A stretch of 851 bases of DNA. It comes from a phage. A model generated the notes under the pieces. The model made no database searches, was not told where the DNA came from, and was given only the letters and a program-made list of their open reading frames with translations. The position numbers and the translations under genes are program-made. Positions 1 to 851 of the stretch are shown one piece after another. The stretch lies in sequence record AB218928.1. The stretch is one strand, 5' to 3'. Position 1 is the stretch's first letter. Each line of letters begins with the position of its first letter.

Positions 1-25
1 TTCGAGCTCGGTACCCGGGCGCGCC
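1..25. other. Cloning-vector polylinker, 5' half: SacI GAGCTC 4-9, KpnI GGTACC 10-15, SmaI CCCGGG 14-19, AscI GGCGCGCC 18-25
   Basis: Overlapping restriction sites read directly in the sequence, in the order of a pUC19-lineage multiple cloning site with an added AscI site. A native genome would not pack these together this way. Confidence 0.9.
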
Positions 26-77
26 GCTTCACTTAGCGAATGCATTAGCCTTAATCAACCAACGCCTGAAAAGGTAA
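26..77 (+). CDS. Putative 3' end of the levivirus maturation (A) protein gene, partial with 5' end cut at the insert boundary; reading frame uncertain
   Basis: In leviviruses the maturation gene lies directly upstream of coat. The frame starting at 27 stays open to a TAA at 75-77, leaving a 16-nt spacer before the coat ATG. The frame starting at 28 stops at TAG 34-36. The frame starting at 26 runs through the coat start. A fragment this short does not let me pick the frame with confidence. Confidence 0.3.
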
Positions 78-81
78 TTAT

Positions 82-85
82 GGAG
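82..85 (+). promoter_or_regulatory. Shine-Dalgarno-like GGAG for the coat gene, 8 nt upstream of the ATG at 94
   Basis: GGAG at 82-85 with the coat ATG at 94-96. Spacing is appropriate for an E. coli ribosome binding site. Confidence 0.6.
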
Positions 86-93
86 TTAGCCAT

Positions 94-486
94 ATGGCAA
101 CTTTACGCAGTTTCGTACTCGTCGATAATGGCGGTACGGGGGATGTTACTGTCGTTCCTGTTAGCAATGCCAACGGCGTCGCTGAGTGGCTTTCTAATAA
201 CTCGCGCAGCCAAGCTTATCGCGTGACTGCCAGTTATCGTGCGTCAGGCGCGGACAAGCGCAAATACACCATCAAACTTGAAGTACCGAAAATCGTTACA
301 CAAGTTGTAAACGGTGTCGAGCTGCCTGTCTCCGCATGGAAGGCTTACGCCTCTATTGACCTGACCATCCCTATCTTTGCCGCAACCGACGATGTGACCG
401 TTATTTCCAAGTCACTTGCCGGCCTGTTCAAAGTTGGGAACCCTATCGCCGATGCTATCTCTTCGCAGAGTGGCTTCTACGCGTAA
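94..486 (+). CDS. cp: ssRNA coliphage coat (capsid) protein, 129 aa after Met removal, GA-like (group II levivirus)
   Basis: Complete 130-codon ORF ending at TAA 484-486. The translation MATLRSFVLVDNGGTGDVTVVPVSNANGVAEW...NPIADAISSQSGFYA matches my recollection of the phage GA coat protein almost residue for residue. It is also clearly homologous to MS2 coat (shared FVLVDNGGTGDVTV, NGVAEW, SRSQAY, RKYTIK-EVPK, GVELP, ELTIPIF/DLTIPIF and GNPI motifs). Confidence 0.95.
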   Translation: MATLRSFVLVDNGGTGDVTVVPVSNANGVAEWLSNNSRSQAYRVTASYRASGADKRKYTIKLEVPKIVTQVVNGVELPVSAWKAYASIDLTIPIFAATDDVTVISKSLAGLFKVGNPIADAISSQSGFYA

Positions 487-677
487 TGGGTCTGAAAGCA
501 AAACATAAGGAAAACCTATGTTCCGATTCACAGAGATCGAAAAGACTCTATGTATGGATCGCACTCGCGATTGTGCTGTCCGATTTCACGTCTATCTTCA
601 GTCATTGGATTTGGGGTCTTCTGATCCTCATTCTCCGGACTTTGATGGACTTGCCTACCTTCGTGATGAATGTCTAA
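486..677 (+). CDS. L: Levivirus lysis protein (L), 63 aa, single transmembrane helix; overlaps the coat stop and the replicase start in the +1 frame
   Basis: ORF from ATG 486-488 to TAA 675-677. The ATG shares its A with the coat stop (TAATG). The product has a basic N-terminal part (KAKHKENLCSDSQRSKR) followed by a hydrophobic stretch (LYVWIALAIVLSDFTSIFSHWIWGLLILIL) containing a Leu-Ser dipeptide (VLSDFTS, compare MS2 L FLSKFTN). Position, length and architecture match the L gene of GA/MS2-type phages. Confidence 0.85.
   Translation: MGLKAKHKENLCSDSQRSKRLYVWIALAIVLSDFTSIFSHWIWGLLILILRTLMDLPTFVMNV
503..521 (+). promoter_or_regulatory. Translational operator hairpin (coat-protein binding site) spanning the replicase start codon
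   Basis: ACATAAGGAAAACCTATGT folds as a 5-bp lower stem (ACAUA/UAUGU), a bulged A, a 2-bp upper stem (GG/CC) and a 4-nt AAAA loop. This is the same geometry as the MS2 operator ACAUGAGGAUUACCCAUGU, with the A-rich loop I recall for GA. The replicase AUG (518-520) and an AGGA Shine-Dalgarno-like element (508-511) lie inside the hairpin. Confidence 0.85.
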
Positions 678-808
678 CTAAACATCCTTCACTTGGGGAC
701 AGTAATTCGGACGCACGCCGTAAGGAATTGGCATATGCCAAACTTATGGATAGTGATCAAAGATGCAAAATCCAAAACAGTAACGGATACGACTACTCTC
801 ATATCGAG
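518..808 (+). CDS. rep: RNA-dependent RNA polymerase (replicase beta subunit), N-terminal 97 codons only; 3' end cut at the insert/polylinker junction
   Basis: ATG 518-520 in the operator hairpin opens a frame that stays open to the end of the window. The translation MFRFTEIEKTLCMDRTRDCAVRFHVYLQSLDLGSSDPHSPDFDGLAYLRDECLTKHPSLGDSNSDARRKELAYAKL... parallels the MS2 replicase N-terminus (DPHSDDF..AYLRDE.LTKHP.LG). Phage-derived sequence ends at about 808, just before the PacI site. The ORF track omits it because there is no in-window stop codon. Confidence 0.9.
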
Positions 809-851
809 TTAATTAAGTCTAGAGTCGACTGTTTAAACCTGCAGGCATGCA
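809..851. other. Cloning-vector polylinker, 3' half: PacI TTAATTAA 809-816, XbaI TCTAGA 818-823, SalI GTCGAC 824-829, PmeI GTTTAAAC 831-838, SbfI/PstI CCTGCAGG 838-845, SphI GCATGC 845-850
   Basis: Contiguous run of restriction sites read directly in the sequence, in pUC19 order (XbaI-SalI-PstI-SphI) with added PacI, PmeI and SbfI sites. This is typical of an expanded pUC-derived MCS. Confidence 0.9.

Follow-up and report, generated by a model that had tools for sequence, protein, structure and literature searches.

The stretch of DNA analysed here, referred to throughout as the window, has a total length of 851 bases, starting TTCGAGCTCGGTACCCGGGCGCGCC and finishing TTAATTAAGTCTAGAGTCGACTGTTTAAACCTGCAGGCATGCA. 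It raises the question of whether the genes of an RNA phage, present as DNA between two clusters of restriction sites, represent a natural locus or a product of cloning. An earlier note on this DNA had taken it for an engineered construct and not a native locus, and that view stands: the flanks match vector and do not run into chromosomal or phage sequence. The window is very probably the sequenced insert and adjoining polylinker of a recombinant plasmid, with a cDNA fragment of a group II RNA coliphage in a pNEB193-type polylinker, and none of the observations allows for an RNA phage having a DNA stage in nature. Its content is already known and is without biological novelty. Its value lies in quality control, as scans for novelty must drop a window that is a cloning artefact carrying well-characterised phage genes.

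Both ends of the window are dense with cloning sites, and in this respect the site map and a shuffle test support the earlier note, which had described sites in pUC19 order with AscI, PacI, PmeI and SbfI added. The left polylinker remnant (positions 1-25) contains (GAA)TTC and sites for SacI (4), KpnI (10), SmaI/XmaI (14) and AscI (18, with BssHII at 19). The right remnant (809-851) contains PacI (809), XbaI (818), SalI (824), PmeI (831), SbfI (838) with PstI (839), and SphI (845), and closes with the first A of HindIII. The order of these sites is that of pUC19, with four 8-base sites interleaved. Palindromic 6-mers and 8-mers account for 64 of 68 bases in the flanks, versus 68 of the 783 bases between them. 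The flanks hold ten palindromic hexamers; 20,000 composition-preserving shuffles yielded 0.95 on average and never more than 8, and no 68-base piece of the insert has more than 3. Ten cloning sites in pUC19/pNEB193 order are thus far beyond chance. The record covers the EcoRI-HindIII polylinker cassette nearly exactly, from the TTC end of EcoRI at 1-3 to the HindIII A at 851.

The sequence between the flanks was compared by megablast with 50,697 phage records, a collection of complete genomes only. Six of these records, among which JP34 does not figure, match, all of them genogroup II leviviruses (Emesvirus japonicum), with identities of 88.8-96.9% over positions 26-808 or nearly all of that range. 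The closest is BZ13 strain DL20 (96.9%), followed by GA (96.6%), two other BZ13 strains (96.5% and 90.5%) and KU1 (88.8%), and no phage record outside genogroup II among the 50,697 matches the insert by megablast. The suggestion that the insert consists of levivirus gene copies is therefore confirmed by its match to levivirus genomes. The matches place the insert at exactly 26-808 (783 bases, plus strand), corresponding to positions 1257-2039 of GA (X03869), and identify it as cDNA of a genogroup II levivirus of the GA/BZ13/JP34 type. Nucleotide identity, the maturation-coat-lysis-replicase gene order, the overlaps of the lysis gene and three Pfam domains scoring above cut-off all agree with assignment to Emesvirus japonicum. 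The gene order, the UAAUG overlap of coat and lysis genes and the operator hairpin are the same as in BZ13 DL20 and GA; the insert differs from these phages in being a DNA copy, in being cut off at GA positions 1257 and 2039, and in a small number of nucleotides (24 ungapped mismatches in 26-808 against DL20 and 27 against GA).

Four genes are represented in the insert, all on the plus strand. The 3' end of the maturation (A) protein gene lies at 27-77 and, translated in register with the GA coding sequence (136-1308), provides the last 16 codons (LHLANALALINQRLKR) and the stop; this C-terminal peptide is identical to that of GA. The coat protein gene is a complete open reading frame of 130 codons (94-486; Pfam Levi_coat, E=1.7e-39), and its product matches the GA coat structures PDB 1GAV and 1UNA and is exactly P34700/AAA72210.1 (JP34) and BAE54356.1. 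The lysis protein gene, also complete, has 63 codons (486-677; Pfam Phage_MS2_lysis, E=3.3e-7); its ATG and the coat stop share bases (TAATG), the gene also runs across the replicase start, and its product is exactly P34702 (JP34), BAE54354.1 and ACT66727.1 (DL20). The 5' part of the replicase (beta subunit) gene occupies 518-808, comprising the first 97 codons (Pfam RNA_replicase_B, E=9.3e-24, profile positions 12-94 of 540), with 0 amino-acid differences from DL20. Apart from these genes, all minus-strand and alternative-frame ORFs in the ORF list are of 50 amino acids or fewer and none is credible, and promoter and terminator scans of the window gave chance-level matches only.

The insert most resembles JP34 at the level of protein, where both the coat (130 amino acids) and the lysis protein (63 amino acids) are identical. 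This identity is not unique to JP34, as BAE54356.1 has the same coat protein and several strains of the BZ13 group have the same lysis protein. The insert may come from a genogroup II isolate that has no deposited complete genome and is not JP34, in which case it would represent a new strain-level variant about 3% removed from DL20 and GA, but this is a tentative reading that we consider somewhat doubtful. The record may derive from the work of Nishihara et al. in 2006 (Microbiol Immunol 50:61; BAE5435x protein series).

The distribution of differences from GA bears on how the insert was made. The coat gene has 21 nucleotide changes relative to GA, scattered along its length, of which 17 are silent and four change an amino acid. 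Divergence is 5.4% in the segment that encodes coat protein only (94-485) versus 0-2.5% elsewhere, and the lower values in the stretch shared by the lysis and replicase frames suggest stronger constraint on those bases. The two ends of the insert (26-80 and 698-808) have no mismatch to GA, while positions 33 and 44 differ in DL20; this pattern suggests that the primers were derived from GA. Since the differences from GA are scattered and mostly synonymous, they are consistent with RT-PCR of a natural isolate and not with a designed or codon-optimised gene.

Plasmid standards are in wide use for F-RNA phage genogroup RT-PCR assays. An insert obtained by gene synthesis, as a designed standard or control fragment of that common kind, could have clean 8-cutter ends like those seen here. 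It would not be expected to carry scattered, mostly synonymous differences from every reference genome while encoding proteins identical to those of the natural strain JP34, and there is neither codon optimisation nor any added tag. Furthermore, a standard normally copies its reference exactly, yet the best complete genome in the collection is only 96.9% identical. Synthesis is accordingly an unlikely origin for the insert, and amplification from an isolate remains the favoured one.

The boundaries of the insert are sharp. When GA is compared in the same ungapped register along the whole window, 756 of the 783 positions inside the insert are identical, as opposed to 5 of 25 in the left flank and 11 of 43 in the right flank. 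Identity outside 26-808 is thus at chance level, and homology ends precisely where the AscI and PacI sites meet the insert, with breakpoints at 25/26 and 808/809 and cloning junctions at AscI (18-25) on the left and PacI (809) on the right. The absence of a BamHI site is as expected if the AscI-PacI stuffer was swapped for the insert. An artefact of assembly or editing, in which vector reads were fused in silico to reads derived from levivirus RNA, could be imagined for a record that is short (851 bases) and ends inside a polylinker, and vector remnants are frequent at contig ends in public collections. However, each junction coincides with an intact AscI or PacI site, the two flanks share one polylinker polarity, and the AscI-PacI (BamHI) segment is precisely gone; a chance mis-join would not mimic directional cloning with two enzymes in this way. 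Such a chimera is very unlikely, even less probable than a synthetic insert, and directional cloning of a phage cDNA is the reading followed below.

Natural sites for NdeI, HindIII and MluI are present within the insert (91-96, 212-217, 479-484 and 732-737) and are also found in GA; one internal NdeI site falls exactly at the coat ATG. The HindIII site inside the insert may be one reason why rare 8-base cutters were used.

pNEB193 is a New England Biolabs (NEB) derivative of pUC19 in which AscI, PacI and PmeI sites have been added to the polylinker. The window has this arrangement, with AscI after SmaI, PacI before XbaI, and PmeI between SalI and PstI/SbfI, and it reproduces the whole SacI-KpnI-SmaI-AscI ... 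PacI-XbaI-SalI-PmeI-SbfI/PstI-SphI order; it differs from pNEB193 in having the insert in place of the BamHI segment, as expected. In two papers on Neisseria gonorrhoeae, pNEB193 was linearised with primers GTTTAAACCTGCAGGCATGCAAG and TCTAGACTTAATTAAGGATCCGGCG, and positions 831-851 (GTTTAAACCTGCAGGCATGCA) and 809-823 (TTAATTAAGTCTAGA) of the window are exact footprints of pNEB-F and pNEB-R, respectively (PMC6033465, PMC6424457). The first primer, GTTTAAACCTGCAGGCATGCAAG, reads as window positions 831-851 followed by AG, and CGCCGGATCCTTAATTAAGTCTAGA, the reverse complement of TCTAGACTTAATTAAGGATCCGGCG, reads as the BamHI site and the CGCC end of AscI, then window positions 809-823. The CGCC that stands ahead of the insert junction agrees with the CGCC|GGATCC in the pNEB193 primer. 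Given the agreement of both the right flank and this CGCC with the pNEB193 primer, the window is the expected product of an AscI/PacI replacement of the BamHI segment. The seven bases between the two footprints, GTCGACT, presumably belong to the pNEB193 sequence as well. The likeness to the pNEB193 layout that the earlier note had pointed out is thus upheld on the right by published primer footprints; the left flank, to judge by its site order, probably comes from the same polylinker, with a possible discrepancy of 1-2 bases in a run of G's.

This discrepancy concerns the junction of the SmaI and AscI sites (14-25), which reads CCCGGGCGCGCC in the window, with three G's, the two sites overlapping by GG. 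In pNEB193 the same junction presumably has four or five G's, i.e. 1-2 more than the window. A junction with five G's would keep lacZ-alpha in frame and would fit a vector length of 2713 bp versus 2686 bp for pUC19, a 27-base difference. The shortfall may reflect compression of a GC palindrome during sequencing, the use of a derivative vector, or an error in the number of G's expected for pNEB193, and does not affect the main conclusion.

The polylinker and junction patterns are absent from 72,556 natural plasmids, from 5,426 E. coli genomes and from 185,579 species genomes (GTDB), and the polylinker/junction string was not found in IMG/VR or the JGI metagenomes either; none of these DNA collections contains the pNEB193 polylinker. 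String searches of the literature with the left-hand polylinker string gave no pNEB193 context. The exact coat and lysis gene products were not found in the assemblies searched, and no contig there carries the junction string. A natural DNA locus, in which a bacterial chromosome or natural plasmid had taken up levivirus sequence, has in its favour only that the sequence is DNA, and is effectively refuted by a man-made polylinker bounding an insert about 97% identical to circulating RNA phages, with no polylinker or junction match in the plasmids and genomes just listed and the exact coat/lysis gene absent from the assemblies.

The orientation of the insert relative to the vector can be read from the left flank. 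Positions 1-19 form the EcoRI-SacI-KpnI-SmaI stretch, and this 19-mer occurs in eight IMG/VR contigs, in each case at an end or close to one. In the three contigs examined, the 19-mer is preceded by lacZ-alpha, the M13(-20) site and a T7 promoter, and the sequence runs on into BamHI. These contig ends are vector remnants, and it is only in such remnants that public contigs showed the 19-mer. The complement of one remnant translates to lacZ-alpha (36 amino acids), and lacZ-alpha is read from the strand opposite to the one bearing TTCGAGCTCGGTACCCGGG. Since lacZ-alpha lies on the complement of the 19-mer strand, the sense strand of the phage is antisense to lacZ-alpha/Plac, and to judge from this arrangement the vector promoter would not transcribe the lysis gene in the cloning host.

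The vector remnants in IMG/VR are of fosmid or pUC type and lie at 1-170 in L006, at 1-66 in L010 and at 14520-14832 (minus strand) in L008, with others in L003, L004, L005, L007 and L009. Several 'viral' contigs of this public collection therefore end in untrimmed vector, and untrimmed polylinker can survive in public records.

A probable history of the construct would begin with an F-specific group II RNA coliphage, either JP34 or another strain whose coat and lysis proteins are the same, whose RNA would have been reverse-transcribed and amplified. The forward primer, bearing an AscI site, would have started from GA position 1257, and the reverse primer, bearing a PacI site, would have ended at position 2039. 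The amplified DNA would then have been ligated directionally into AscI/PacI-cut pNEB193, or into a vector with the same pUC19-derived polylinker, with loss of the BamHI stuffer. In the resulting antisense orientation the toxic lysis gene would not be expressed from Plac, which would suit a clone meant for sequencing or storage.

One consequence of the cloning is visible at the right junction. The replicase frame stays open across the PacI site and on into polylinker sequence (...SHIE-LIKSRVDCLNLQAC), with no stop up to position 851. This read-through is a by-product of cloning, and a gene caller could list the resulting artificial fusion ORF as a gene.

As DNA, the insert is without native function, and its coat, lysis (UAAUG start) and operator features act only in the RNA phage. 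Two RNA hairpins known from the annotation of GA can be placed in it, both on the plus strand. A putative control stem-loop of the lysis gene lies at 452-476, in register with the GA feature at 1683-1707 and just before the overlap of coat stop and lysis start; the fold of 450-478 (-9.0 kcal/mol, z=-1.78) is weak by itself. The translational operator hairpin, the binding site of the coat protein, lies at 501-521 and encloses the replicase start (518-520). It corresponds to GA 1733-1753, annotated as 'pot. binding site coat protein' (X03869), and its predicted fold has an energy of -4.9 kcal/mol (z=-2.95).

The operator shares with that of MS2 (Rfam RF02359) a seven-pair stem, a bulged A and a four-base loop around the replicase AUG. 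It differs in that the loop is AAAA and not AUUA, and in that one G-C pair is replaced by A-U, a compensatory change; by these features the hairpin is of the GA type and not the MS2 type. Because of the AAAA loop and the A-U pair, it scores only 18.1 bits (E=0.12) against RF02359, under the gathering score of 40, and a scan at the gathering threshold would miss a genuine operator.
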